Virus record (IMG/VR): IMGVR_UViG_2547132272_000017
Span: 1-9,491 of that record
Length of the DNA: 9,491 nucleotides
DNA from: a virus
Lineage: Duplodnaviria; Heunggongvirae; Uroviricota; Caudoviricetes
Reading direction: 5' to 3' (one strand)
Shown here: positions 1 to 9,491 of the stretch, one piece after another
How the letters are laid out: each line of letters begins with the position of its first letter
Numbering within the stretch: position 1 is the stretch's first letter
Notes under the pieces: model-generated
The model's input: only the letters and a program-made list of their open reading frames with translations
What the model was told of the DNA's origin: nothing
The model's database searches: none
Program-made: the position numbers and the translations under genes

Positions 1-91
1 ACTCTCCAGGAAACCCGGGGCGGTTCAGTTGTTCCGCCTGTCGCAACATTTCCTGTGCCTGTTTACGTAATTGTTCAGGGGTAAAAGTCAT
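1..91 (-). CDS. Partial ORF (N-terminus only; continues past the left window edge), hypothetical protein
   Basis: ATG at 91..89 on the minus strand, 11 nt after the helicase stop (TGA, 105..103). Reverse complement of 1-91 is open and reads MTFTPEQLRKQAQEMLRQAEQLNRPGFPGE. No clear Shine-Dalgarno; only 30 codons visible. Confidence 0.25.
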   Translation of the reverse strand, partial: MTFTPEQLRKQAQEMLRQAEQLNRPGFPGE

Positions 92-102
92 TGTCTGGTT
101 GT

Positions 103-1494
103 TCAAAAGAAACGCTCCATCTTACTGCTGTCAGTTCGTTTGTTGCTGTATCTGCGCGGCTGAGGCTGCTGCATTGGGGTGGAAAGAATCTGTGCGCTTT
201 CCTGATCCACAGGCAGAAAATGTCCGTTATAAAAACGCCGATAAATCGTCCCCAGAGAACCGTTACGTTGTTTCGTGATATTGATTTCTGCGATGCCCCT
301 GGCCTGCGTATCCGGGTTGTACACTTCATCCCTGTAAAGCATCAGAATGATGTCTGCATCCGCCTCTATTTCTCCGGAATTTTTCAGGTCTGAGTTCATG
401 GGGCGTTTATTGGGCCTGGACTCCACACCGCGGGAGAGCTGACTCAGCGCAATCAACGGAAAACCACCGGATTTTGCCAGGCCTTTAAGCCCCTTTGAGA
501 TTTCACCAACGGCAAGGTCATGACGCCCTGTGGTTCGGGTTTTTATCAGCCCGAGATAATCAACCACCACCAGCGCCGTTTCCGGATGTTTAATCAGGTG
601 ATGTTTCGTTGTTGCGCATATCTCATCAATGGTCAGGTTCGCCTGGTCCACCATCCAGATATTGCGCCCGGTCATCCGCCCCACTCCTTGTGAGAAACGT
701 GCCCAGTCTTCGTCTTCAAAGTGAGTGACAGATTTCAGGCGTGATACCGGCATTCCTCCAGCCGCAGATACCATGCGTTCACCAATCTGGATGTTCGCCA
801 TTTCCATTGTGAACAGAAGAACACCATGCCCCTGCTCAGTCACCTTGTCGATGATATCCAGCGCCAGTTCGGTTTTGCCCATCGAAGGACGTGCAGCAAT
901 AAATACCAGGTCGCCAGGCTCCATGCCGCCCGTTTTTGCGTCCAGTTCATCAATACCGGTCATCAACGTCCTGGATTTCTCCAGCCCCTGATTCCGGCAT
1001 TCAACACGCTCAACCACTTCCGGAAGCACATCATCAATATGTACCGGCTGAATAACGCCCTTTTCCGTCGACAATGAGGCCATCATGTTCTGCGCATCCT
1101 TCAGAGCATCTTCAGCTGCTTCACAGGTATGCGCATCACGTAATTTCTGCAGCGCCTCATTCAGTGTTTTTTCTGCATCACGCAATGCGGCATTACGCCG
1201 CAACGCCGTAACATAGTGCTCCAGTGACGACTTCACCCAGGTTTTGCGCCCGGTATCAGTAATCACCGGGGCAAGTTCCGGCATCTCATTACACAACAGC
1301 ACAGGGTCAATCACGCCGGACACACGGGCCTGTCTGCAGATGCCTGTGTAGATATCCCGGTACGGTCGTACAGAAAAAACGTCCGCCGGTAGTGTGGCCA
1401 GAATATCCATCACTTCAGGATCTGCCCCTCGCAGAAAAAACGCGCCAATGACAGCGCCTTCCAGGTCATCGTTACGCCAGACAGGAGAAGTCAT
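103..1494 (-). CDS. DnaB-family replicative DNA helicase (phage-encoded)
   Basis: Long ORF with Walker A motif (ARPSMGKTELALD) and overall DnaB-like RecA-fold layout. Start placed at the ATG at 1494 (MTSPVWRND...), preceded by GGAGG and overlapping the upstream gene's stop as ATGA. The ORF track's start at 1533 is a TTG without an RBS. Confidence 0.85.
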   Translation of the reverse strand: MTSPVWRNDDLEGAVIGAFFLRGADPEVMDILATLPADVFSVRPYRDIYTGICRQARVSGVIDPVLLCNEMPELAPVITDTGRKTWVKSSLEHYVTALRRNAALRDAEKTLNEALQKLRDAHTCEAAEDALKDAQNMMASLSTEKGVIQPVHIDDVLPEVVERVECRNQGLEKSRTLMTGIDELDAKTGGMEPGDLVFIAARPSMGKTELALDIIDKVTEQGHGVLLFTMEMANIQIGERMVSAAGGMPVSRLKSVTHFEDEDWARFSQGVGRMTGRNIWMVDQANLTIDEICATTKHHLIKHPETALVVVDYLGLIKTRTTGRHDLAVGEISKGLKGLAKSGGFPLIALSQLSRGVESRPNKRPMNSDLKNSGEIEADADIILMLYRDEVYNPDTQARGIAEINITKQRNGSLGTIYRRFYNGHFLPVDQESAQILSTPMQQPQPRRYSNKRTDSSKMERFF

Positions 1495-2381
1495 GCTGCC
1501 ACACCTCCGATATGTGCACGGTAACTTTCCCAACCAAACACCAGGCAGTTACGCCCACCATCAGTAACGCGATCCACAATCCGTTCACCAATGGACTCCT
1601 TAAGTTGGTCAAATGTCAGATTACTAATCAAAATTGTCGGTAAAACGCTTTCGTAACGTGCATTGATGATTTCCTGCAGGATGGTTATCTCTGTTGGCGT
1701 ACCGAACTGCACACCAACCTCATCGATGATGAGCAGGTCCAGCGATACAAAATGGTCAATAACTTCATCTTCAGTGCGTTCAGAATTGTGACGCCAGGTA
1801 TTTTTCACAGCGCGGGTCAGTCGCATGACATCCGTAATTTCGACAGTCGCCAGGTGGTGGCGAATAATATTTTTTGCCATTGATACAGCCAGGTGATTTT
1901 TCCCGGTACCGCAATTGCCAATCATGATCATGCTGGTACCCGCAGCAAGACACTTCTCCCATGAACTGGCATAGCGCCGACAAGCCTCAAGATTTCTCTG
2001 TGCGTCAGCATTCACAGCCTGGTAGTTCTCAAACTCGCAGTCCTGGAAGCGGCGGGCAATACCAGCTCTGTCAAGTAATTCATGAACTTTCAGGATGCGT
2101 AACGCCTCCTGTACCTGATCCAGTTCATTCGCAATGCAGGTCGGGCAACCAGACACCCGTTTGATGGTTTCCCCACGAACATCTGGCCCTTTCAACACCA
2201 GACGTGTGTATTTCCCGTGTTTCTCACACTCAGCAGTTTCCTCGCTTGTCAGCCAGTGTTCACAGCGCCACGGACGCTTCCCGGCACGGGCAAACTGCAT
2301 CTCCTCCTCCAGTTCCGCCCTGCGGTTGAGCAATTGCGCTTTATCGTGTTGTGCGTAGTGTTTTTTTAACTGTTCAAACAT
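1491..2381 (-). CDS. DnaC/IstB-like AAA+ ATPase, putative helicase loader / replication protein
   Basis: Walker A (GNCGTGKNHLA) and Walker B (LLIIDEVG) motifs. Cys-rich N-terminal region (RCEHW, ECEKHG, GCPTC). SD GAGGTGA 7 nt upstream of the ATG at 2381. Stop overlaps the helicase start (ATGA). Confidence 0.8.
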   Translation of the reverse strand: MFEQLKKHYAQHDKAQLLNRRAELEEEMQFARAGKRPWRCEHWLTSEETAECEKHGKYTRLVLKGPDVRGETIKRVSGCPTCIANELDQVQEALRILKVHELLDRAGIARRFQDCEFENYQAVNADAQRNLEACRRYASSWEKCLAAGTSMIMIGNCGTGKNHLAVSMAKNIIRHHLATVEITDVMRLTRAVKNTWRHNSERTEDEVIDHFVSLDLLIIDEVGVQFGTPTEITILQEIINARYESVLPTILISNLTFDQLKESIGERIVDRVTDGGRNCLVFGWESYRAHIGGVAA

Positions 2382-2400
2382 TGTTCATCACCTCGAAAAA

Positions 2401-3378
2401 TCACCAGTTGAAGTTCGTTGAACCGTAGTCCTGCTCACTGAATCCCGAGATCGGGAGGCCGGTAGTTCGCCCACCTCCGGGAGCGGCTGGCTGTTGCCAG
2501 GATTCCTCGAAATGGCGATCGGGTCCAAAGAACGTCGCGGCCTGCTTCACGAACTGTGTGCCTGTATTTCCTGTAGCACGTACCCAGGCGGCATACCGCT
2601 TCACACCATCAAGCATGGTCTCCGGTTTTATTCCCTCCCTGATACGGGCTTTCCAGGCTTTGAAGGCTGCTGACTTGGAATTGCCACCAGCACGTTTGGG
2701 ATATTCCTGCCAGGCCTGTTCAAATTCCGGTGAATATTCCTGTCGGGCAGAACGCGCTGGTGCAGACGCGTCAGCGGATGCGCCAATAGTGTTTTTAGTC
2801 TCCGTTGTAATCTCTGTAGTAATCTCTGTATTTGTATCAACATTCGGCGTATCCCCTGTTCCGTTATGACGTTGGGGGGTGTTCCGTTTTAACGTAATAG
2901 CTGTATCGCTGATTGCGTTATTGCTGTTACTTTCTGGCGAAACAGAAGAAGGAGTAGTAATGGCAGCAATTGCCTGTGGGTTGATCCCGACAAACAAAAT
3001 ATTGCTGCATTTCACACCATCGAGCATTTCCACCGTGCGTAAATCCAGGGAAATAAACCCGGCATCACGAAGGCGCTTCAACGCATCCGCGGTTTCCCTT
3101 TTCCCGAAACCAAACTGCTCAGCAAACGCCTGATAACTTCTTTGCAGCTTGTCCCCCTGAAAACGCTTGCGATATCCCAGCAAAGCCCCGGTATGCTCAT
3201 CCCTGACTTCTGTCGGGCGGTACCAGTAAACGATCTCTGAGAGCAGGGCGATAGCGGTCGCATCCGGACGACCACTGGGTAGCCGAATATGTTTCCACCA
3301 GTTCGCTGGTGTGACATTGCCGGAAATATTAATTTGACCAATAGCTATAACTTCCGGTGTGGGGGCGTAACGACTCAT
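2401..3378 (-). CDS. Phage replication initiation / replisome-organiser protein (O-like)
   Basis: 325-aa ORF immediately upstream of the DnaC-like and DnaB-like genes, with a strong SD (AAGGAGG). N-terminal region resembles phage replisome-organiser proteins; a low-complexity linker (TEITTEITTE) separates it from a C-terminal domain. Assignment rests on position and architecture, not on a searched match. Confidence 0.6.
   Translation of the reverse strand: MSRYAPTPEVIAIGQINISGNVTPANWWKHIRLPSGRPDATAIALLSEIVYWYRPTEVRDEHTGALLGYRKRFQGDKLQRSYQAFAEQFGFGKRETADALKRLRDAGFISLDLRTVEMLDGVKCSNILFVGINPQAIAAITTPSSVSPESNSNNAISDTAITLKRNTPQRHNGTGDTPNVDTNTEITTEITTETKNTIGASADASAPARSARQEYSPEFEQAWQEYPKRAGGNSKSAAFKAWKARIREGIKPETMLDGVKRYAAWVRATGNTGTQFVKQAATFFGPDRHFEESWQQPAAPGGGRTTGLPISGFSEQDYGSTNFNW
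2807..2830. repeat. Perfect tandem 12-bp direct repeat (gtaatctctgta x2) inside the O-like gene
   Basis: Read directly: 2807-2818 and 2819-2830 are identical, followed by a partial third unit (tttgta). Encodes the TEITTEIT linker on the minus strand. Confidence 0.7.
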
Positions 3379-3674
3379 ACAGCCTCCTTACGCGGCATAA
3401 CAATGGTGTAACCCCGGGCAGGCTGGAGCCGGGCTTTTGCATCAATAGTGAGCGTTGCAATTTTTCGGATACGCAGATACCCTGCCCTTTCCAGGGTCAG
3501 GGTTTCTCTGAACATTGCCTGTTTTGAACAGCAACAAAAATCGGCAAGGACCTGGTGATCAATAACCCTCTCACCTTCACCGTCTGAAGAACCCGACATC
3601 AAAACACGCAACATAATCAGGCGCTGAATCGGATTATCGAAAACACTTCCGCATACAAACTGAAAACAGTTCAC
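3375..3674 (-). CDS. Hypothetical protein (99 aa, GTG start)
   Basis: GTG start at 3674 preceded by GGGAGG at good spacing. Start overlaps the upstream stop (GTGA) and the stop overlaps the O-like start (ATGA). The C-terminal half (QVLADFCCCSKQAMFRETLTLERAGYLRIRK) may be a winged-helix-like segment; this is unverified. Confidence 0.5.
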   Translation of the reverse strand: MNCFQFVCGSVFDNPIQRLIMLRVLMSGSSDGEGERVIDHQVLADFCCCSKQAMFRETLTLERAGYLRIRKIATLTIDAKARLQPARGYTIVMPRKEAV

Positions 3675-3895
3675 ACGGCACCTCCCAGGCGTTTAAACAT
3701 TTTTCCGGACTGAAACGCCACCAGTGGGTAACTGATGGTGTAGTTACGCCCCAGTAATTCACACACGACTTTCTGGCTTTCGGTACTGACCAGGCAAACC
3801 CGCAGAACATGGCCGTTGCTGGTGGCAAACCACTGCCCCACACGGGGGCAACGGTTGTATCGGTGATACAGGGAATTAACGACGCGGCGAATCAT
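3671..3895 (-). CDS. Hypothetical protein (74 aa; alternative start at 3910 would give 79 aa)
   Basis: ATG at 3895 overlaps the stop of the upstream 220-aa gene (ATGA), indicating translational coupling. No recognisable domain. Confidence 0.45.
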   Translation of the reverse strand: MIRRVVNSLYHRYNRCPRVGQWFATSNGHVLRVCLVSTESQKVVCELLGRNYTISYPLVAFQSGKMFKRLGGAV

Positions 3896-4554
3896 GGGCG
3901 CACTTCCCATTGATTACGGCGGAAAGCAGTGTGATTCAGGCTGGTTTCAGCCTCATGGAATGCTTCAATGCAGCTCTCGTAGTACCGCATTGTGCGCAGA
4001 CTTAACCCAAGCTGAAGCATCATCAGACCATCAAGGGTGATGTAATAACCACGCAGGGAATCGCCATACACGTGGTAAGTACCCGGAATGAAATTACGGG
4101 AGAAGAATTCACGTGAGCAGTTCAGATACTCGATTTTGTCGACGATGTTCTGGTGCATGCGCTTAAAGTGGCAGGCAACATGCAGGGAGAAAATAACAGC
4201 TTTGCCGTTGACGACTTCGATTTTCAGGTATGGGGAAGTTGGGACTGTAGCCATGATGGCAGCCTCCGTATGCAATGGATAACTTCCACCACCGGAAACG
4301 CCAATTTCACTGGTGGTGAACTGAACGGGGTTGGCGTAACCGGCGCATACGGAAACCGGCGCATCTTTCGATGCCCCCGCCCAGCCCACCATAATCTGGA
4401 TGTGAGCAAATGCGGACGATAAAAAAGACGCTGGCGCGTCGTATATCGCCGTATGCAATTCCAGGACGCCAATCCCGGCACCCGCTTTATAAGGTGCCAG
4501 AACAGTGTAACGTCCCGAAATTGCAGAATCAATATTTAGGCTTGAAACATTCAT
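3892..4554 (-). CDS. Hypothetical protein (220 aa)
   Basis: Longest ORF in this interval, on the same strand as the flanking operon; ORFs in other frames are shorter shadows. No clear SD upstream of the ATG at 4554 and no recognised motif. Confidence 0.55.
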   Translation of the reverse strand: MNVSSLNIDSAISGRYTVLAPYKAGAGIGVLELHTAIYDAPASFLSSAFAHIQIMVGWAGASKDAPVSVCAGYANPVQFTTSEIGVSGGGSYPLHTEAAIMATVPTSPYLKIEVVNGKAVIFSLHVACHFKRMHQNIVDKIEYLNCSREFFSRNFIPGTYHVYGDSLRGYYITLDGLMMLQLGLSLRTMRYYESCIEAFHEAETSLNHTAFRRNQWEVRP

Positions 4555-4631
4555 ATGCTTACTGGTATTTTTGTTGACGTTCTTGGATTCTTGGGCCTGC
4601 TTTATGCAGTTGCCTGTATCAACGTTGAGCG

Positions 4632-4657
4632 AGCCGGGTTACTACCCGGCTTTTTTT
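4632..4657 (+). terminator. Intrinsic terminator-type hairpin (8-bp GC-rich stem AGCCGGGT/ACCCGGCT, 4-nt loop) followed by T7 on the + strand
   Basis: Read directly: stem 4632-4639 / 4644-4651, T-run 4651-4657. Canonical for + strand transcription; on the minus strand it sits immediately after the Rha stop codon, preceded by an A-tract with no U-tract after it. Confidence 0.6.
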
Positions 4658-5388
4658 CACCGCTGCCAACCAATAACCTGAAATAACCCCATTTTCGGGT
4701 GATACCAGCGAGTCCCTCGCGGTTCTGCTTCCTCCATAACCCGATAAAAAGCAGCCATAAACGGTTCCACAGCAACAATTGCGCGACGTGACAACAATCC
4801 GTCCGGCGTCATGAACTCATGGGTGTCTGTAGGAATTTGATAGGCGTTCACCAGATTGCGGCATTTATCATCTGACAAACCGGTTTTTGCTTTCAGTTGG
4901 CGATATCCGGCATAGCCCTCACGAATGGTGCCCTTTTTGATTTGCTCAACTGTTTCGGCAACATGGCTGACTTTTTCTTCCACCTGAGTGATCCGTTTCT
5001 GCTGGCGAACAGCTTCAAGAGCCATCGCTGCAACCATTTCGATTTCGCTCATTGGCTTACGGATCTGTTCTTCCAGTTCGCGCCAGCGATCTACCAGGCG
5101 AGCAGTGAATTCAGGACAGAGCTGTGCGACGACAATGATGCTGTCGCGCTTACCTTGTTCTCCTTCAAACAGGTAATGCTCATATTGAACTTTAAAACCT
5201 AAGTTATTGATTCTTTCGGAAACCTCAATTTGAGGAGACCGGACAACGCCACCTTTGGCTAATGTTTCAATAGTGCGTTTCACATTGTCATGACGTTTAC
5301 CCACCAGCTCTGCGATTTCAACGCTGGTCATGGATACTTTGTCGTTAAAAATTGCAGCGTTCATTGTTGCCTCTTTACGAAAAACCAT
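4657..5388 (-). CDS. rha: Rha-family phage regulatory protein
   Basis: N-terminal signature SMTSVEIAELVGKRHDNVKRTIETL is typical of the Rha domain. Two candidate in-frame starts, ATG 5388 (SD AGAGG) and ATG 5364 (SD AAAGAGG); the longer is annotated. Confidence 0.8.
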   Translation of the reverse strand: MVFRKEATMNAAIFNDKVSMTSVEIAELVGKRHDNVKRTIETLAKGGVVRSPQIEVSERINNLGFKVQYEHYLFEGEQGKRDSIIVVAQLCPEFTARLVDRWRELEEQIRKPMSEIEMVAAMALEAVRQQKRITQVEEKVSHVAETVEQIKKGTIREGYAGYRQLKAKTGLSDDKCRNLVNAYQIPTDTHEFMTPDGLLSRRAIVAVEPFMAAFYRVMEEAEPRGTRWYHPKMGLFQVIGWQR

Positions 5389-5433
5389 GATTAACCTCTA
5401 GCTTTCCCCGTCTTTTCCGCACTTCTTGTACGG

Positions 5434-5442
5434 TGATATTAT
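5434..5442 (+). promoter_or_regulatory. Extended -10-like element TGaTATTAT, candidate promoter for the + strand gene at 5536
   Basis: Sequence TGATATTAT sits about 95 nt upstream of the ATG at 5536. The -35 is weak (tttccg). It lies in the 147-bp divergent spacer between the Rha start and the + strand gene. Confidence 0.3.
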
Positions 5443-5535
5443 TCAGTGCCGGATGCTTACCCGTGTCCGGCGCACGACCACACGTAGCCGCGTGTTGGTC
5501 TCCATTTTCAATTCAGCTCTCAATGGAGGATAAAA

Positions 5536-5781
5536 ATGTCAAATACCCAACATCTAAAAGCGGCGGATCCCGTTTTACGCCTCAATGCACTTGAAACGGT
5601 TGTTCGGGCGATGCTGTCGAGCATGACACCCGAGCAAATAAACAAAGCGCGATTGATTGCTACTCGTGGTGCCCAATTAGCAGCCCTAGATCCATTGCTC
5701 ACTCCTGCGAATCGCGAAGATGTAGAGCACATTCAGGGGATGGTTGATTATTTATTCGCCCATATTCCTGATCAGATTTGA
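5536..5781 (+). CDS. Hypothetical protein (81 aa), convergent with cro, inside the rightward early region
   Basis: Strong SD GGAGGA 5 nt before the ATG at 5536. Protein-like composition (MSNTQHLKAADPVLRLNALETVVRAML...). A hairpin plus T-rich tract lies downstream. The antisense ORF 5520..5732 has biased Ser/Ala/Arg content typical of a shadow frame. Confidence 0.55.
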   Translation: MSNTQHLKAADPVLRLNALETVVRAMLSSMTPEQINKARLIATRGAQLAALDPLLTPANREDVEHIQGMVDYLFAHIPDQI

Positions 5782-5813
5782 TTCTTTGAACCATAATTTC
5801 AGCGATACGAATG

Positions 5814-5844
5814 GCCGCCGCTTCGAGCCTGGCGGCTTCTTTAT
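5814..5844 (+). terminator. Hairpin (GCCGCC / GGCGGC stem, 11-nt loop) followed by TTCTTTAT, between convergent genes
   Basis: Stem 5814-5819 / 5831-5836 read directly, T-rich tract 5837-5844. Lies 33 nt after the + gene stop and 27 nt after the cro stop on the other strand. Confidence 0.4.
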
Positions 5845-5862
5845 CTGCATAAGAGCTACCCA

Positions 5863-6108
5863 TCACTTCTCGTCCTCTGTGTGCGCTAAGCTTGGGTGTG
5901 GAAAAAGCTCTGGTAGGTCTGGACGAAATTCATACGCTTGGATCTTTCCGTCGACAGCTGCAACCAATAACGGCACAAATTCTGGTGAAATCTTGTTCTT
6001 GCAGTTCAACCAATCGCAGACTGTTGACTGGGCCTTTCCGCATCGCTTGGCTAAGGCTTGCTGACTTCCAAGAATCTCAATAGCTTTCTCTATGGCTTTA
6101 TGTTTCAT
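5863..6108 (-). CDS. cro: Cro-like HTH regulator (YdaS-type)
   Basis: Divergent from the cI-like gene across the operator region. Pattern AIEKAIEILGSQQALAKRCGKAQSTVCDWL...EFRPD matches the YdaS/Cro-like HTH family. Start set at ATG 6108 (MKHKAIEK...) with SD AGGAGA; the ORF track's longer start lacks an RBS. Confidence 0.75.
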   Translation of the reverse strand: MKHKAIEKAIEILGSQQALAKRCGKAQSTVCDWLNCKNKISPEFVPLLVAAVDGKIQAYEFRPDLPELFPHPSLAHTEDEK

Positions 6109-6227
6109 AATCGCATCTCCTATTGAACGCATAATAACAACAGGAAAAGCGATATTCAACGTTAAACCTAGAACATTTATCGGAAAGCCGATAGACTAGC
6201 CAGGATAGAGAGGGGAGGAAAATCGCA
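6109..6227. promoter_or_regulatory. Divergent control region (OR analogue) between cro and cI, with operator-like sites
   Basis: 119-bp spacer between the divergent HTH genes. Contains the palindrome TATCGGAAAGCCGATA (6178-6193) and weaker related copies at 6109-6124 and 6139-6154 (core ATCG-N6-CGAT). Confidence 0.7.
6131..6159 (-). promoter_or_regulatory. PR-like sigma70 promoter for cro (-35 TTGAAT, 17-bp spacer, -10 TATTAT, minus strand)
   Basis: Minus-strand reading: -35 is the complement of 6154-6159, -10 the complement of 6131-6136. This leaves a leader of about 16 nt carrying the cro SD. Confidence 0.5.
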
Positions 6228-6920
6228 ATGACATTTTCAGAACGACTTGATTTAGCTATGCGCAACGCAAAATTTACGCAAGGTAGGCTGGCCAAAGAAG
6301 TGGGTATGGCTCAGTCCAGTGTCAATCAACTACTTAACAAAGCCAACGGTTCCAGAAAAACAGTCGAAATAGCAAAAGTTTTGGGCGTTAACCCGGAATG
6401 GCTCGCATCGGGTGTTGGCCCAATGGAAATCGTGACCTCTGCAGACTCACACCAAATACGTAACATTTCTGAAGATTGGGTTACTGATTCGTATGTCGTG
6501 GATGTTTTAGACATCAGATATAGTTGCGGACCTGGTAGTTATAACTCTGATTTTCCTGACATTGTCAGATCTATAGCGATAGAACCAGGATACGCATCAA
6601 GAGTTTTTGGCGGCAGGCCAGCATCAGCAATCAAAGCAATAAACGCCCACGGCGACAGTATGAAAGGCACAATAGACCCTGAAGACTTGGTATTTGTAGA
6701 TGTATCAGTTCGCACATTTAATGGTGATGGTATATACGCCTTTACATACTCTGGAACATCGCACATCAAAAGACTTCAAAAAATCAAAGATACTCTAACG
6801 GTGATATCTGACAACCCAGCTTACAAGGATTGGGCTATCGAACCGGAAGACTTCGAACAACTTCACATTGACGGAAAAGTAATTGTCAGTTGGCCCATGA
6901 CACTACACCGTTTTGCATAA
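6228..6920 (+). CDS. cI: CI-like prophage repressor: N-terminal HTH plus C-terminal LexA/S24-type autopeptidase
   Basis: HTH (FTQGRLAKEVGMAQSSVNQLL); S24 motifs GDSM with a Lys about 38 residues downstream (HIKRL); possible Ala-Gly-type cleavage region (LASGVG). SD GGAGG 10 nt upstream of the ATG. Confidence 0.9.
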   Translation: MTFSERLDLAMRNAKFTQGRLAKEVGMAQSSVNQLLNKANGSRKTVEIAKVLGVNPEWLASGVGPMEIVTSADSHQIRNISEDWVTDSYVVDVLDIRYSCGPGSYNSDFPDIVRSIAIEPGYASRVFGGRPASAIKAINAHGDSMKGTIDPEDLVFVDVSVRTFNGDGIYAFTYSGTSHIKRLQKIKDTLTVISDNPAYKDWAIEPEDFEQLHIDGKVIVSWPMTLHRFA

Positions 6921-6938
6921 GCAAAAATCATTTAACCC

Positions 6939-6964
6939 GCCCACTCTTAAGTGGGCTTTTTTTT
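6939..6964 (+). terminator. Rho-independent terminator after cI (stem GCCCACT / AGTGGGC, loop CTTA, T8)
   Basis: Read directly: stem 6939-6945 / 6950-6956, T-run 6957-6964, 19 nt after the cI stop. Confidence 0.8.
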
Positions 6965-6971
6965 GGAAAAA

Positions 6972-7012
6972 AATCGATAAACCGATTGACAGACAAAATC
7001 GGCAAACCTATT
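6972..7012. promoter_or_regulatory. Two operator-like sites (OL analogue) overlapping the PL-like promoter
   Basis: AATCGATAAACCGATT (6972-6987, overlaps the -35) and AATCGGCAAACCTATT (6997-7012, overlaps the -10) share the core ATCG-N6-C(G/T)AT with the OR palindrome. Centre-to-centre spacing is 25 bp. Confidence 0.55.
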
Positions 7013-7014
7013 AT
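6986..7014 (+). promoter_or_regulatory. Near-consensus sigma70 promoter (TTGACA, 17 bp, TATTAT): PL analogue
   Basis: -35 TTGACA at 6986-6991, 17-bp spacer, -10 TATTAT at 7009-7014; about 50 nt upstream of the ATG at 7064. Confidence 0.7.
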
Positions 7015-7063
7015 CATGGCATAGGTATCGAACTCACCAAAGCAATTATAGAGGATGAGAAAA

Positions 7064-7561
7064 ATGTCATCGTATATGGGGTTACCAACAAATCAGCACG
7101 ATGCTCTTGAGAATATTCAACTCTTAGTAGGGGCTGGTGCACTACTGTATAGCAGCAATAATCCTGAGTTAATTGAACTTGCCAGCTCCATCCTGGCTGT
7201 AACTCAAAAATACAGCCTCACCGCGTCGCGTTTATGCAAACAAAATTTAGCTATTAATTCCCAGAATCGGATTCGCACCCAACGCGAAGCCTGCGGCTTA
7301 ACAACCGCCGAACTCGCCAGGCTGCTCGATCTCGATGAAGAAATTATCATCCAGTGGGAGAGCGGAGAGTATGAACCAACTATCAGTATGCTTATCCCAC
7401 TGGCAAATATTCTTGGCTGCGATCCGATGTGGCTGTTAACTGGCGAAGTTACTCCTCCGGAGCAACCAAAAAGTGAGGAGCAGCAACACCATGACGCATC
7501 TCAACAAGTTTGCTCCTTATCTCGCGAAGCTCTTCTACGGAAGAACCAATACCAATGGTGA
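7064..7561 (+). CDS. XRE-family HTH protein with an uncharacterised N-terminal region (166 aa); first gene of the leftward operon
   Basis: SD GAGGA 8 nt before the ATG at 7064. HTH_XRE signature in the C-terminal half (IRTQREACGLTTAELARLLDLDEEIIIQWESGEYEPTISMLIPLANILG). No Arg-rich N-type motif. Confidence 0.7.
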   Translation: MSSYMGLPTNQHDALENIQLLVGAGALLYSSNNPELIELASSILAVTQKYSLTASRLCKQNLAINSQNRIRTQREACGLTTAELARLLDLDEEIIIQWESGEYEPTISMLIPLANILGCDPMWLLTGEVTPPEQPKSEEQQHHDASQQVCSLSREALLRKNQYQW

Positions 7562-7689
7562 CATAATCGCCGCTTCGCCCCTCAAGGTACATGCGAACAT
7601 TTTTATCAATCATTGCGGAAACAGTCTCAATATGAAAACACTTCTGAGACTCGCTATATAGCAGAACATATAAGTCAGCTGAGGAAGCC

Positions 7690-8055
7690 ATGAAAAAGTT
7701 CGAAAACATAACTGTTCTCCATGTTGATGACTTTGATTATACAAACCCGGAACCTCTCCCGGAGGTTGTAAAGGCAATAGATGTTGCCGATATAGTGATT
7801 AGAGGAAAGAGAATTGTCAAAAACAGGCTCGCATGCACTTCAGGAGCAATGACAAAAACAACCTCACAACAAGATGATTATGAAGGCATTTGTCTGGAGC
7901 CGGACTCATTTGCGGTAAATGTTTATCATTTATTGCATGCAACACAGGTATTACATATGTCCAGTAATCACGAAACAAAAACACTTGGCAGCGAAATTCT
8001 GAATTTTGCATGTGAATATGCAAAAGCTGCTGCCGAAAAAGAATTAGCGCAATAA
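7690..8055 (+). CDS. Hypothetical protein (121 aa)
   Basis: ATG at 7690 preceded by GAGGA. AT-rich codon usage matching the neighbouring + strand genes. No recognised motif. Confidence 0.6.
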   Translation: MKKFENITVLHVDDFDYTNPEPLPEVVKAIDVADIVIRGKRIVKNRLACTSGAMTKTTSQQDDYEGICLEPDSFAVNVYHLLHATQVLHMSSNHETKTLGSEILNFACEYAKAAAEKELAQ

Positions 8056-8253
8056 CAACAAATATGCCATGAACGTTTATTACGGTTTTATCGCCGGGGA
8101 TTGTTGCAACCTTTATTCATAGAGGTAACTCAGTTATGACTTTCCTGAAAAATAAGGCATCGTATAAAACTGCCTGCCTCATTGCACAACATGGAGATTC
8201 TTATCTTCATATAGCCAACCTGTATTTGCGCAAAGCATATGGGAGATAAATAA

Positions 8254-8442
8254 ATGAAAGAAAAACAACAGAACATAACACATGAAAAAGTAAGAGTGTT
8301 GTTGACCATTGAAAATGGGAAAGTGATTTACTCAAAACATCTGTCGGATGATGAATTCGTTGGCTGCATGGATACATTTCTGTGGATGGTAAAAAGAGCG
8401 GGTTACACGATTATTCCACCAGCAAAGGAACAAACATTATGA
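8254..8442 (+). CDS. Hypothetical small protein (62 aa), translationally coupled to the downstream gene
   Basis: SD GGGAGA 7 nt before the ATG at 8254. Stop TGA overlaps the next ATG (ATGA at 8439-8442). Confidence 0.55.
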   Translation: MKEKQQNITHEKVRVLLTIENGKVIYSKHLSDDEFVGCMDTFLWMVKRAGYTIIPPAKEQTL

Positions 8443-9020
8443 ATTATTCAGAGTTCCGACCAGAAGTTACGCCACATGGCATAAAAATTGGCAATACAAC
8501 CATTGATTATGTTGAGGCCGTACAGCGACTTAATGATGGTGAATACGATTATCCAAACTCACACGGTTTAAGAATCATGCAATGTATTGCTGAAGCCGAT
8601 GATGCAGGGTTGCTGGGACGATTTTCAGTCGATATGAAAGTTGCTCAATGGCGATGGCTGTATGTGACTACGTTTATAAATGAAGAGAAAGACAAGAACG
8701 GTACCGTTGATATCCCTAACGATAATGGAACTACAGATCGCGCAGTTATTTACAAGGGGAAACATGGTTGCCTGAGTATCTACCCCGGACCACTTCGCAT
8801 TGCCCTGCAAAACCATGTCGAATGGGGATTTATTGAAAAATATGGCGAAGCTGAAGGCATGGGGCGAGTTCTGTTTCTCTATCAAAAAATGCTCATCGCA
8901 GATCCTGATAATGGTTTCATTATCTCTGCTATGGGGCGCGAAGGGCTTGAACTCCTTCTGGATGAAATGATTCACGATCTGAATACTCATGGTATGCCAG
9001 AAGCGCCAGTGACACATTAA
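8439..9020 (+). CDS. Hypothetical protein (193 aa)
   Basis: ATG at 8439 with SD AAGGAA 8 nt upstream and ATGA overlap with the 62-aa gene. The ORF track's longer form starts at a GTG (8382) with no RBS. Soluble-looking, no recognised catalytic motif. Confidence 0.65.
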   Translation: MNYSEFRPEVTPHGIKIGNTTIDYVEAVQRLNDGEYDYPNSHGLRIMQCIAEADDAGLLGRFSVDMKVAQWRWLYVTTFINEEKDKNGTVDIPNDNGTTDRAVIYKGKHGCLSIYPGPLRIALQNHVEWGFIEKYGEAEGMGRVLFLYQKMLIADPDNGFIISAMGREGLELLLDEMIHDLNTHGMPEAPVTH

Positions 9021-9027
9021 ATATTAA

Positions 9028-9052
9028 GAAGAATATAATTCTTCCGTTTTTT
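9028..9052 (+). terminator. Candidate intrinsic terminator (AT-rich 7-bp stem GAAGAAT / ATTCTTC, loop ATA, T6)
   Basis: Read directly, 8 nt after the stop of the 193-aa gene. The stem is weak (two G-C pairs), so efficiency is uncertain. Confidence 0.45.
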
Positions 9053-9065
9053 ACTAACCGTTTAT

Positions 9066-9173
9066 ATGAAAAGCAACCGTGAATTAAGCAGAGTAAAACT
9101 GATTTTAATCCTTGCCACAGTGCTGACACTAACTGAAATCATTATTCTCTTTATTGCGCTGTCAGTCGGTTAA
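9066..9173 (+). CDS. Candidate small hydrophobic peptide (35 aa, single predicted transmembrane helix)
   Basis: ATG at 9066; MKSNRELSRVK followed by a hydrophobic stretch (LILILATVLTLTEIIILFIALSV). No SD; below the ORF-track size cutoff. Confidence 0.25.
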   Translation: MKSNRELSRVKLILILATVLTLTEIIILFIALSVG

Positions 9174-9196
9174 AAATATCGGGATACCACAGACCA

Positions 9197-9385
9197 ATGA
9201 GACTGTATTTCACAATAGTAATTTTACTGGCAATTATCGCATGCATTTACGGATTACTCGTTCCGTTCCTTATATCCATGAAGGATACGATAGCAGTTAT
9301 TTCTGGCTTTGCACTGGCGTTTCTGACCCCGCCCTGCATTTATGCCATTTACAAGGGTCTTTCTTTCACTAAGGATAAAAGATGA
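9197..9385 (+). CDS. Small membrane protein (62 aa, two predicted transmembrane segments, charged C-terminus)
   Basis: Hydrophobic segments FTIVILLAIIACIYGLLVPFLI and IAVISGFALAFLTPPCIYAIY. Weak SD. Stop overlaps the next ATG (ATGA). Confidence 0.5.
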   Translation: MRLYFTIVILLAIIACIYGLLVPFLISMKDTIAVISGFALAFLTPPCIYAIYKGLSFTKDKR

Positions 9386-9477
9386 AAAAAATTATTTTTG
9401 CTTTAGCCATTGTTCTGCCGACTATTGGCCTTGTCGGTTGCGATCGCGTTGAACCAGGTAATGGCTTTGTTGAATAA
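9382..9477 (+). CDS. Tiny putative lipoprotein precursor (31 aa; signal peptide plus lipobox LVGC)
   Basis: SD AAGGA 6 nt before the ATG at 9382. MKKIIFALAIVLPTIGLVG|CDRVEPGNGFVE: n-region, h-region and lipobox Cys at residue 20. ATGA-coupled to the upstream membrane-protein ORF. Confidence 0.4.
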   Translation: MKKIIFALAIVLPTIGLVGCDRVEPGNGFVE

Positions 9478-9491
9478 ATCGAACTTTTGCT

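Follow-up and report, generated by a model that had tools for sequence, protein, structure and literature searches.

What is the string of AT-rich genes that directly follows cI in a lambdoid prophage fragment, and when in the life of the phage would those genes be expressed? The fragment in question, a stretch of 9491 nucleotides (nt) from a Caudoviricetes record (IMG/VR IMGVR_UViG_2547132272_000017; hereafter the window), had previously been interpreted from its letters alone, and that sequence-only reading pictured the block beside cI as a leftward PL-type operon made entirely of uncharacterised genes, with an early anti-restriction or host-takeover role preferred over defence of the lysogen. 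The answer that we consider probable is a more ordinary one, namely that positions 6965-9463 are an N-less, PL-type, probably CI-repressed immediate-early leftward unit of a phiP27-type lambdoid Escherichia coli prophage.

The family to which the block belongs can be stated directly. Its DNA corresponds to the region of genes L10-L05 in phage phiP27 (NC_003356 / AJ298298), with 95.2% identity over 78% of positions 6900-9491, and phiP27 presents the same genes in the same order, that is, a helix-turn-helix (HTH) protein (L10), proteins of 121 (L08), 62 (L07) and 193 (L06) amino acids (aa), a membrane protein and an SPFH lipoprotein (L05). Collinear, high-identity DNA and this shared gene order place the block in a phiP27-type early-left module. 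DNA matching the block was found in 403 of 5426 complete E. coli genomes (~7%), and several Shiga toxin (Stx) phages, both Stx1- and Stx2-converting, match it at 72-82%, so that what had seemed an unusual block is a conserved early-left module of phiP27-type prophages. In intact relatives the string continues through genes for a 275-aa SPFH lipoprotein, a DUF5406 protein and a DUF4222 protein to xis and int, as seen in phiP27, NZ_CP141863, Stx2_14040 and ASU11, and the unit in the window ends at the insertion sequence (IS) IS903B at 9464. Because the string runs on to xis and int in these relatives, part of the block's job is ordinary, and one early unit that also delivers excision functions is the simplest reading. 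The description of the genes as uncharacterised holds as far as function is concerned, all of the early-left genes of phiP27 being annotated as hypothetical or 'unknown', but the block itself is the published L10-L05 region, and seven of the eight tested + strand open reading frames (ORFs) belong to existing PHROG families, the exceptions being a 35-aa ORF and a 37-aa ORF that the earlier list had lacked.

Terminator, promoter and putative operators beside cI

The repressor gene that precedes the block (6228-6920, + strand) encodes a LexA-like cI protein with an HTH and a Peptidase_S24 self-cleavage domain (Pfam PF00717, 7.5e-17), which matches phrog_4 and phrog_6201 'CI-like repressor' in PHROGs and whose 100% identical counterpart in one relative is annotated as 'LexA family transcriptional regulator'. 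Both cI and the block lie on the + strand and the cro-like gene (5863-6108, recognized by sequence resemblance) lies on the - strand, and the orientation is therefore the lambda cI/PL-like one that had been pictured. An intrinsic terminator closes the cI gene on the + strand, with a stem-loop at 6939-6956 (feature to 6964) that consists of a 7-bp G+C-rich stem followed by T8 and folds at -12.4 kcal/mol (z = -3.1). Starting 30 nt past this terminator, at 6986-7014 on the + strand, is a promoter of sequence TTGACA-17-TATTAT that matches 11 of 12 consensus positions and has a predicted start near 7021, as the sequence-only reading had noted. It was the sole promoter of 11/12 quality in our scan of positions 5700-9491, where the remaining eight promoter-like sites scored 9/12, which is chance level (9 found versus 8.0 expected in shuffled sequence). 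Relatives of other immunity types have a promoter at the same place. The arrangement expected of a PL-type promoter is thus present, with the promoter downstream of cI, in the same orientation, and a terminator between the two.

The claim that two copies of the cro-side operator motif overlap this promoter also stood up to counting. Allowing at most one mismatch, the 14-bp motif ATCGGNAANCCGAT occurs at three sites in the 9491 bases (both strands) as compared with 0.04 expected, and none of the shuffled sequences reached three sites. The reference operator, ATCGGAAAGCCGAT at 6179-6192, lies in the cI-cro intergenic region with zero mismatches to the motif and perfect palindromic half-sites. 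Left operator 1, ATCGATAAACCGAT at 6973-6986, has one mismatch and abuts or overlaps the -35 hexamer, and left operator 2, ATCGGCAAACCTAT at 6998-7011, likewise with one mismatch, lies in the spacer and overlaps the -10 hexamer; together these two form an 18-nt direct repeat whose copies are 25 nt apart. The relative with the identical cI carries identical operator sites, and relatives with other cI alleles carry their own, different motif, which is again common to the cI-cro region and the promoter region after cI (a GTATCA type in phiP27 and ZH063, and a ATCAAGTT type in Stx2_14040 and PhiR49_2). Such covariation of the motif with the cI allele is the behaviour expected of operators for the adjacent repressor, and we infer that CI would bind them. 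With a terminator behind cI and operators on the core promoter, a unit that is repressed by CI in the lysogen and expressed early after induction, as had been proposed, is the best reading of this region.

Beyond the promoter, the terminator scan returned no terminator-like site on the + strand in 6965-9491, and the hairpin that follows the 193-aa gene is weak (-4.9 kcal/mol, z = -1.2). Between 6960 and 9470 we found no convincing internal palindromes or regulatory repeats. The region does not have the makings of an N-antitermination module, the first gene coding for an XRE-type HTH protein and no N family match emerging from Pfam, PHROGs or NCBIfam; Rfam gave no known RNA family in 6965-9491, although nut sites were not specifically searched for. 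The earlier statement that the block holds no N, Kil, Ral or recombinase agrees with our searches of the same three protein collections, which returned no homologue of any of them.

Genes of the unit and its opposite-strand gene

We judged coding status from codon-position counts and from Nei-Gojobori ratios of nonsynonymous to synonymous substitution rates (dN/dS) against eleven related loci. Every + strand ORF listed in the sequence-only reading exists at the coordinates given below, and two genes, of 86 and 37 aa, had been missed. Purifying selection was found on every + strand gene except the 35-aa ORF.

The first gene of the unit encodes an XRE-family HTH protein (HTH_3, 2.8e-11) and runs on the + strand from 7064 to 7561 (165 aa) or from 7055 (168 aa). 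A GAGGA lies 8 nt upstream of the 7064 start, which is the most likely one; the HTH assignment of the previously proposed 166-aa protein stands, with its start adjusted and its last ~37 codons being unconstrained. The protein matches phrog_4739 at 8e-58 and phrog_4836, labelled 'CII-like regulator', at 3e-51. Its XRE domain spans residues 73-127, the nearest solved domains are those of P22 C2 and 434 repressor, and in Pfam it matched only the generic HTH_3, HTH_19 and HTH_31 models and no lambda CII family, so that we do not follow the PHROG label in assigning it to that family. The conserved core covers approximately aa 1-131. The tail that follows (aa 132-168) has a dN/dS of about 1.5-2.5, which amounts to no protein-level constraint, and its frame contains stop codons in CD45 and a premature stop in NZ_CP141863; we accordingly rejected the tail as functional protein.

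The 121-aa gene (phiP27 L08; 7690-8055, + strand) matches phrog_5451 at 1e-81. Its full length had been in doubt since the first 53 codons differ from close relatives by few changes, most of them in the first and second positions of codons, and since the PGAP annotation of three of the related loci (L002, L008 and L009) gives the gene 68 aa. We dropped this doubt on the evidence of amino-acid conservation in Citrobacter and Salmonella, where the copies are exactly 121 codons long and have the motifs ITVLH and ADIVI.G..KNR in common. The N-terminal half shows a dN/dS of 0.19-0.42 against these copies, and the full length is therefore real. Residues 57-121 match phrog_4587 at 1.6e-28, a profile that also matches residues 3-58 of the HTH protein at 3.6e-7, and direct BLASTP between the HTH N-terminal domain and the 121-aa C-terminal domain gave E = 0.006. 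Stx phages also encode this shared domain as a stand-alone protein of 66 aa, directly after the gene of a two-HTH regulator. Because of the shared domain and of this stand-alone copy, we suggest that the HTH and 121-aa proteins may work as regulator and partner in tuning early transcription or the choice between lysis and lysogeny.

Between these two genes lies the feature that departs most from the earlier picture of a leftward operon. An 86-aa gene (7449-7709; phrog_6104 at 1e-49) occupies the - strand, convergent with the PL-type promoter, and shares 113 nt with the 3' end of the HTH ORF and 20 nt with the 5' end of the 121-aa gene, which means that the block is not purely a one-directional operon. 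Its dN/dS is 0.08-0.16, with substitutions gathering at third codon positions. Within the overlap, the differences from a diverged E. coli copy are distributed 9/8/22 over the codon positions of the 86-aa gene as against 7/23/8 over those of the HTH frame, that same copy has two stops in the HTH frame there, and another relative has a premature stop there. The non-overlapping part of the gene gives a dN/dS of 0.08-0.13 against Citrobacter and Salmonella, as compared with ~1.5 for the HTH tail. Homologues of 82-88 aa in Salmonella and Citrobacter always sit between the HTH and 121-aa genes with the same overlaps, beside repressors of a different type. By its codon-position pattern, its dN/dS and its kept overlaps, the 86-aa gene is thus the most constrained of the block. 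The AlphaFold model of its product has a core with predicted local distance difference test (pLDDT) values above 90 and a beta-beta-alpha-beta-alpha topology, and a fold search against the PDB returned no significant neighbour. A GIY-YIG nuclease fold was considered as a lead, for which we found neither a profile match nor a significant structural match with the catalytic Tyr/Arg/Glu in place.

As to the expression of this gene, the best promoter candidate, TTGACA-17-CACTAT at 7820-7792, is conserved, as is a GGAG before the ATG, but both lie inside conserved 121-aa coding sequence and their conservation proves nothing. A - strand hairpin at 7746-7763 was tried as a leader or terminator of the gene and discarded, as it is not conserved in diverged loci. 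In phiP27 the 86-aa gene is broken after codon 36 and another opposite-strand gene, L09, stands in its place with a portable leader; because of this swap, the position suggests a slot for independently expressed cargo. PGAP leaves the 86-aa gene unannotated in loci L002 and L008, and in ZH063 (locus L009), which like phiP27 retains a remnant of it, PGAP annotates an L09-type opposite-strand gene instead. The missed 86-aa gene and the 68-aa call for the 121-aa gene probably reflect a systematic annotation error for this module.

Further along the + strand the genes are small. Clear coding signatures, with dN/dS of 0.07-0.3, were obtained for the 37-aa, 62-aa, 193-aa and 62-aa membrane genes and for the lipoprotein remnant. 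The 37-aa basic protein gene (8136-8249) has a dN/dS of about 0.08 at a proportion of synonymous differences (pS) of about 0.7, keeps its length in five lineages and is annotated in PhiR49_2 and Stx1_14040. The 62-aa gene (phiP27 L07; 8254-8442; phrog_340 at 1.3e-24; dN/dS 0.13-0.32) overlaps with its stop the start of the 193-aa gene in a 4-nt ATGA. That 193-aa gene (phiP27 L06; 8439-9020) encodes a protein of mixed alpha/beta fold with no recognised relative, for which a confident AlphaFold model had no significant neighbour in the PDB or BFVD. The family comprises 139 representative clusters among 1.84 billion proteins, no informative domain fusion was found among these 139 remote homologues, and in every case a member sits within the gene string that leads from repressor to integrase in an enterobacterial temperate phage, among neighbours that vary. 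Four other genes replace the 62-aa and 193-aa genes in ZH063 (3840-4993 of that locus, the equivalent of 8254-9020), where the 37-aa gene is kept, and one of the replacements encodes a ParE-like toxin (Pfam ParE_like, 1.6e-17); the contents of this slot can thus be exchanged. The description of the block as AT-rich cargo is consistent with these findings, since its GC content is 0.412 in 6965-9463 as compared with 0.503 in 28-5800, and since mosaicism and the ParE-like gene in a relative's slot fit exchangeable cargo.

The unit closes with what had been counted as three tiny membrane ORFs. The 35-aa ORF (9066-9173), with one hydrophobic helix, is 88-94% conserved in three relatives, but its coding status is uncertain, with a dN/dS of 0.3-1.0, substitutions too few for a test and no Pfam or PHROG family match. 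A 62-aa membrane protein gene with two hydrophobic helices (9197-9385; phrog_1130 'membrane protein' at 2.5e-23; dN/dS 0.08-0.18) is translationally coupled through an ATGA overlap to the lipoprotein gene, and its product has no match to NfeD, the type of partner expected in an SPFH/band-7 membrane scaffold operon, or to any other Pfam family. The third ORF, of 31 aa (9382-9477), is not a gene of its own. Its first 27 codons (9382-9463) are the start of the SPFH/band-7 lipoprotein gene (phiP27 L05), with a signal peptide and the lipobox LVGC, and are 100% or 96% identical to relatives over residues 1-27 only; the full-length relative is a 275-aa lipoprotein with Band_7 at 1.8e-30, and codons 1-27 before IS903B are all of the Band_7 protein that the window contains. 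All DNA matches to relatives end at 9463, and 9464-9491 is the terminal sequence of IS903B, its 28 bases being found in >5000 plasmids at 26,326 places, many copies each, with the IS903B transposase gene beginning 4 nt beyond the matched stretch at an example locus. The 31-aa 'membrane ORF' is therefore a lipoprotein signal peptide and lipobox fused to an IS. Species-representative genomes, searched for the exact junction of lipoprotein gene and IS903B, gave no match. On the left, bases 1-27 of the window belong to an IS3-family element, of which they form the terminal repeat; this repeat is present in multiple copies in 3820 plasmids and is adjoined at an example locus by an IS3-family orfA/orfB pair. 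Similarity to prophage relatives starts at position 26, just beyond the 3' end of the helicase gene, so that the prophage segment has an IS end on either side.

Expression of the unit and competing explanations

On the reading that we favour, CI in the lysogen would bind both left operators and block RNA polymerase, and SOS-induced self-cleavage of CI through its S24 domain, or infection, would let the PL-type promoter fire. Transcription would then proceed through the HTH gene, the 121-, 37-, 62- and 193-aa genes and the membrane genes, and in intact phages the transcript would ultimately reach xis and int. This would happen without an N-type antiterminator, the first product being an XRE-family DNA-binding protein, and the 37-, 62- and 193-aa proteins together with the membrane trio would act as accessory early proteins. 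Lying on the opposite strand, the 86-aa gene would not be made from the PL-type promoter; most likely it would have its own promoter inside the 121-aa gene and be expressed when the operon is silent, and convergent transcription would oppose it once the operon fires. Several observations weigh against this account. The argument for CI repression comes from the placement of the sites and from the shared motif, no more than two left operators can be seen, and of the sites between cI and cro the second and third are weak, with 3 mismatches. The promoter scan passed no promoter for the 86-aa gene, the idea of a regulator/partner pair draws on a weak pairwise similarity (E = 0.006) and on PHROG profile matches, the accessory genes are without assigned function, and the copy in the window may be inactive in a prophage broken by IS elements.

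This last point is the core of the alternative that the block is a decaying relic, a dead prophage fragment between insertion sequences whose genes are no longer expressed or useful. A window with an IS3-family terminal repeat at its start and IS903B at its end, an SPFH gene cut after codon 27, and xis and int that are not contiguous with the operon here would all fit it, and we regard it as a minority possibility to be taken seriously, although no other reading frame is broken, a relative has a 100% identical cI, the promoter and operators are unchanged, and an IS insertion need not delete the remaining prophage, which possibly continues beyond the window. The accessory genes could alternatively form an early cassette for anti-defence or host takeover, in which the 37-, 62- and 193-aa proteins and their neighbours would disable host defences or redirect physiology, like Ral, Gam and Kil of lambda or DicB of Qin. 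This is compatible with the immediate-early reading, from which it differs only in the role given to the accessory proteins, and the predicted early, CI-repressed expression, the small, tightly packed and translationally coupled genes, and the occurrence of 193-aa homologues in the repressor-integrase string with changing neighbours, as is typical of accessory early genes, all point its way. A precedent is offered by DicB and DicF of the Qin prophage immunity region, mentioned in a passage of a preprint (bioRxiv 10.1101/708461). We nevertheless hold it to be somewhat unlikely, as no similarity to known anti-defence or host-takeover proteins was found in Pfam, PHROGs, NCBIfam or the PDB and fold searches with the 193-aa and 86-aa models returned no significant match.

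Exclusion genes often lie beside cI, as with rexAB/sieB in lambda and sieA/sieB in P22, and the block, or part of it, might likewise be a protection island expressed in the lysogen that excludes or aborts infecting phages through its membrane proteins and SPFH lipoprotein or through the 86-aa protein. Its position at such a site, its AT-rich and mosaic character, the membrane proteins and lipoprotein, the ParE-like toxin gene in the 62/193-aa slot of ZH063, and an 86-aa gene that is independent of the repressible promoter and is replaced by other opposite-strand cargo in phiP27 would be in keeping with this. However, the + strand genes lie beyond the strong terminator of cI, and their core promoter is overlapped by the two operators, so those genes should be off in the lysogen; moreover, no promoter for the 86-aa gene passed the scan, the SPFH gene is truncated in this copy, and PADLOC matched generic HTH models only, which together make this explanation unlikely. 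Least probable of all, and rejected, is that the 62-aa and 193-aa proteins are a type II toxin-antitoxin pair, in which the antitoxin would be small and encoded upstream of a larger toxin. The ATGA overlap of the two genes and the ParE-like gene in the ZH063 slot speak for it, but 4-nt overlaps are the rule along the whole operon, neither protein has a toxin-antitoxin family match, and diverged 193-aa homologues are preceded by unrelated genes (for a 277-aa ORF6N protein, or for 140-aa and 59-aa proteins) whose products show no similarity to the 62-aa protein. The partnership of the 62-aa with the 193-aa protein is therefore not conserved, and the idea falls. More ambitious, and in our estimate quite improbable as a whole, is a joint reading in which the HTH/86-aa/121-aa trio is a self-contained second switch and the 193-aa protein defines a separate fold family. 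A promoter within the 121-aa gene might then drive production of the 86-aa protein in the lysogen alone, where it would serve as a prophage-expressed effector, e.g. of exclusion or defence, PL firing might silence its gene by convergent transcription, and the 121-aa protein might titrate the HTH regulator via the shared domain; the 193-aa fold, with no recognised relative, may be one confined to early-left operons of enterobacterial temperate phages. The trio does keep identical overlaps beside unrelated repressors in Escherichia, Salmonella and Citrobacter prophages.

Searches for function narrowed these choices little. Across all ORFs, Pfam, NCBIfam and PADLOC reported HTH and S24 domains only; PADLOC-DB 2.0 in particular gave generic HTH matches (RmrA, capH, HTH_VI) and nothing for the other eight proteins, and sequence searches of the PDB with the 193-, 121- and 86-aa proteins returned no match. 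In the literature on phiP27, on SPFH proteins with prophages or anti-phage activity and on immunity regions, we found no functional study of genes of the block. The proposed defence or anti-defence role is thus left with no evidence behind it, and the caution that the sequence does not decide between functional options applies after our comparisons as it did before. In its structural picture the sequence-only reading was largely right, and for the + strand genes its hedged preference for early over constitutive expression has the better support. Our analysis points to no specific defence or anti-defence activity and reveals no new kind of system. What it does offer is a view of a block that is common (~7% of complete E. 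coli genomes, Stx-converting phages included) and long deposited, with genes that are without assigned function; as members of a putative CI-controlled early unit, they are concrete candidates for early phage functions, now with corrected gene models. Of some interest are the conserved antisense gene and the fixed overlaps that it keeps, the domain shared by the HTH and 121-aa proteins, and two confident structural models without a significant match in the libraries searched (the PDB for both models, BFVD for that of the 193-aa protein). For annotation practice, PGAP tends to miss the 86-aa gene and to shorten the 121-aa gene to 68 aa, and the 31-aa 'lipoprotein' is an artefact of IS truncation.

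Neighbouring genes and comparison with known systems

By gene content, the window is the part of a lambdoid prophage that is concerned with immunity and replication. Its - strand carries, by sequence resemblance, genes for a DnaB helicase-like protein (103-1533), a DnaC-like loader (1491-2381), a replication initiator-like protein (2401-3378) and a Rha/Ant-like regulator (4657-5388). Downstream of the last of these, and under a mechanical 220-aa ORF (3892-4554), Rfam placed a C4 antisense RNA (4309-4396, - strand; 80.5 bits against a gathering score of 45) and an IsrK RNA (4421-4497, - strand; 61.8 bits against 50), along with a weak c4-a1b1 target match (4458-4510), and this part of the rightward operon looks like a P1 immI-like antisense control module. 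Between the cro-like and Rha/Ant-like genes, an 81-aa ORF (orf81; 5536-5781) without a PHROG match lies on the opposite, + strand and has its own terminator (5817-5836, + strand); by its orientation and terminator it is a second antisense-oriented cargo gene in the prophage. A leader of ~90 nt (5446-5535, + strand) precedes it and folds into two stable hairpins (-37.3 kcal/mol, z = -4.2), after which come GGAGG and the ATG. In phiP27 and ZH063 a 97.7% identical copy of this leader stands before L09, a gene unrelated to orf81; ~30 933W-type Stx phages contain the first 48 nt of the leader in DNA that carries no annotation, and Rfam has no family for it. Opposite-strand cargo genes may thus have a portable 5' cassette in this leader.

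Among known systems, phiP27 itself is the closest, and it differs from the window in having another cI allele with GTATCA-type operators, an HTH protein of 138 aa with a different N-terminus, and an intact SPFH gene followed by xis and int. Further afield, Salmonella and Citrobacter prophages (loci L010-L013) have the trio of HTH, opposite-strand and 121-aa genes directly after the repressor, as here, and the genes of the trio overlap in the same way, by 20 nt head-to-head and by about 100-119 nt where the HTH gene ends, but these prophages differ in their short repressors without an S24 domain and in their other downstream cargo, and protein identity is ~30-65%. In CP-933P, the paaR2-paaA2-parE2 cargo is co-transcribed with the CI analogue and expressed in the lysogenic state (PMC8630535). 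The likeness to our block lies in cargo that is embedded in, and regulated by, a lambdoid immunity region, and in the ParE-like gene of the ZH063 slot; unlike in CP-933P, a terminator and a repressible promoter part the cargo from cI here, and the window contains no toxin-antitoxin pair.

The dicB operon of Qin is repressed by DicA and yields very small proteins and the DicF RNA, and its derepressed products act on host functions. The Qin immunity region is described in a passage of the preprint cited above as encoding DicB and DicF (bioRxiv 10.1101/708461). No sequence similarity connects the two, and Rfam did not find DicF in the block, so the resemblance is one of design, in that a repressor silences an operon for very small proteins within the immunity region of a prophage.

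In lambda, OL/PL consists of a promoter just past the cI unit, directed away from cro, with operators of the cI-cro consensus. Compared with it, the block lacks an N gene and homologues of exo/bet/gam, cIII, kil and ral, shows two visible operators and not three, begins with an XRE-type DNA-binding protein, and holds one conserved gene on the opposite strand. It resembles lambda PL in the position and direction of its promoter, in operators that overlap this promoter and that carry the cI-cro consensus and covary with the cI allele as those of a PL-type unit would, in its AT-rich accessory genes, and in a unit that, in intact relatives of the block, ends at xis and int.

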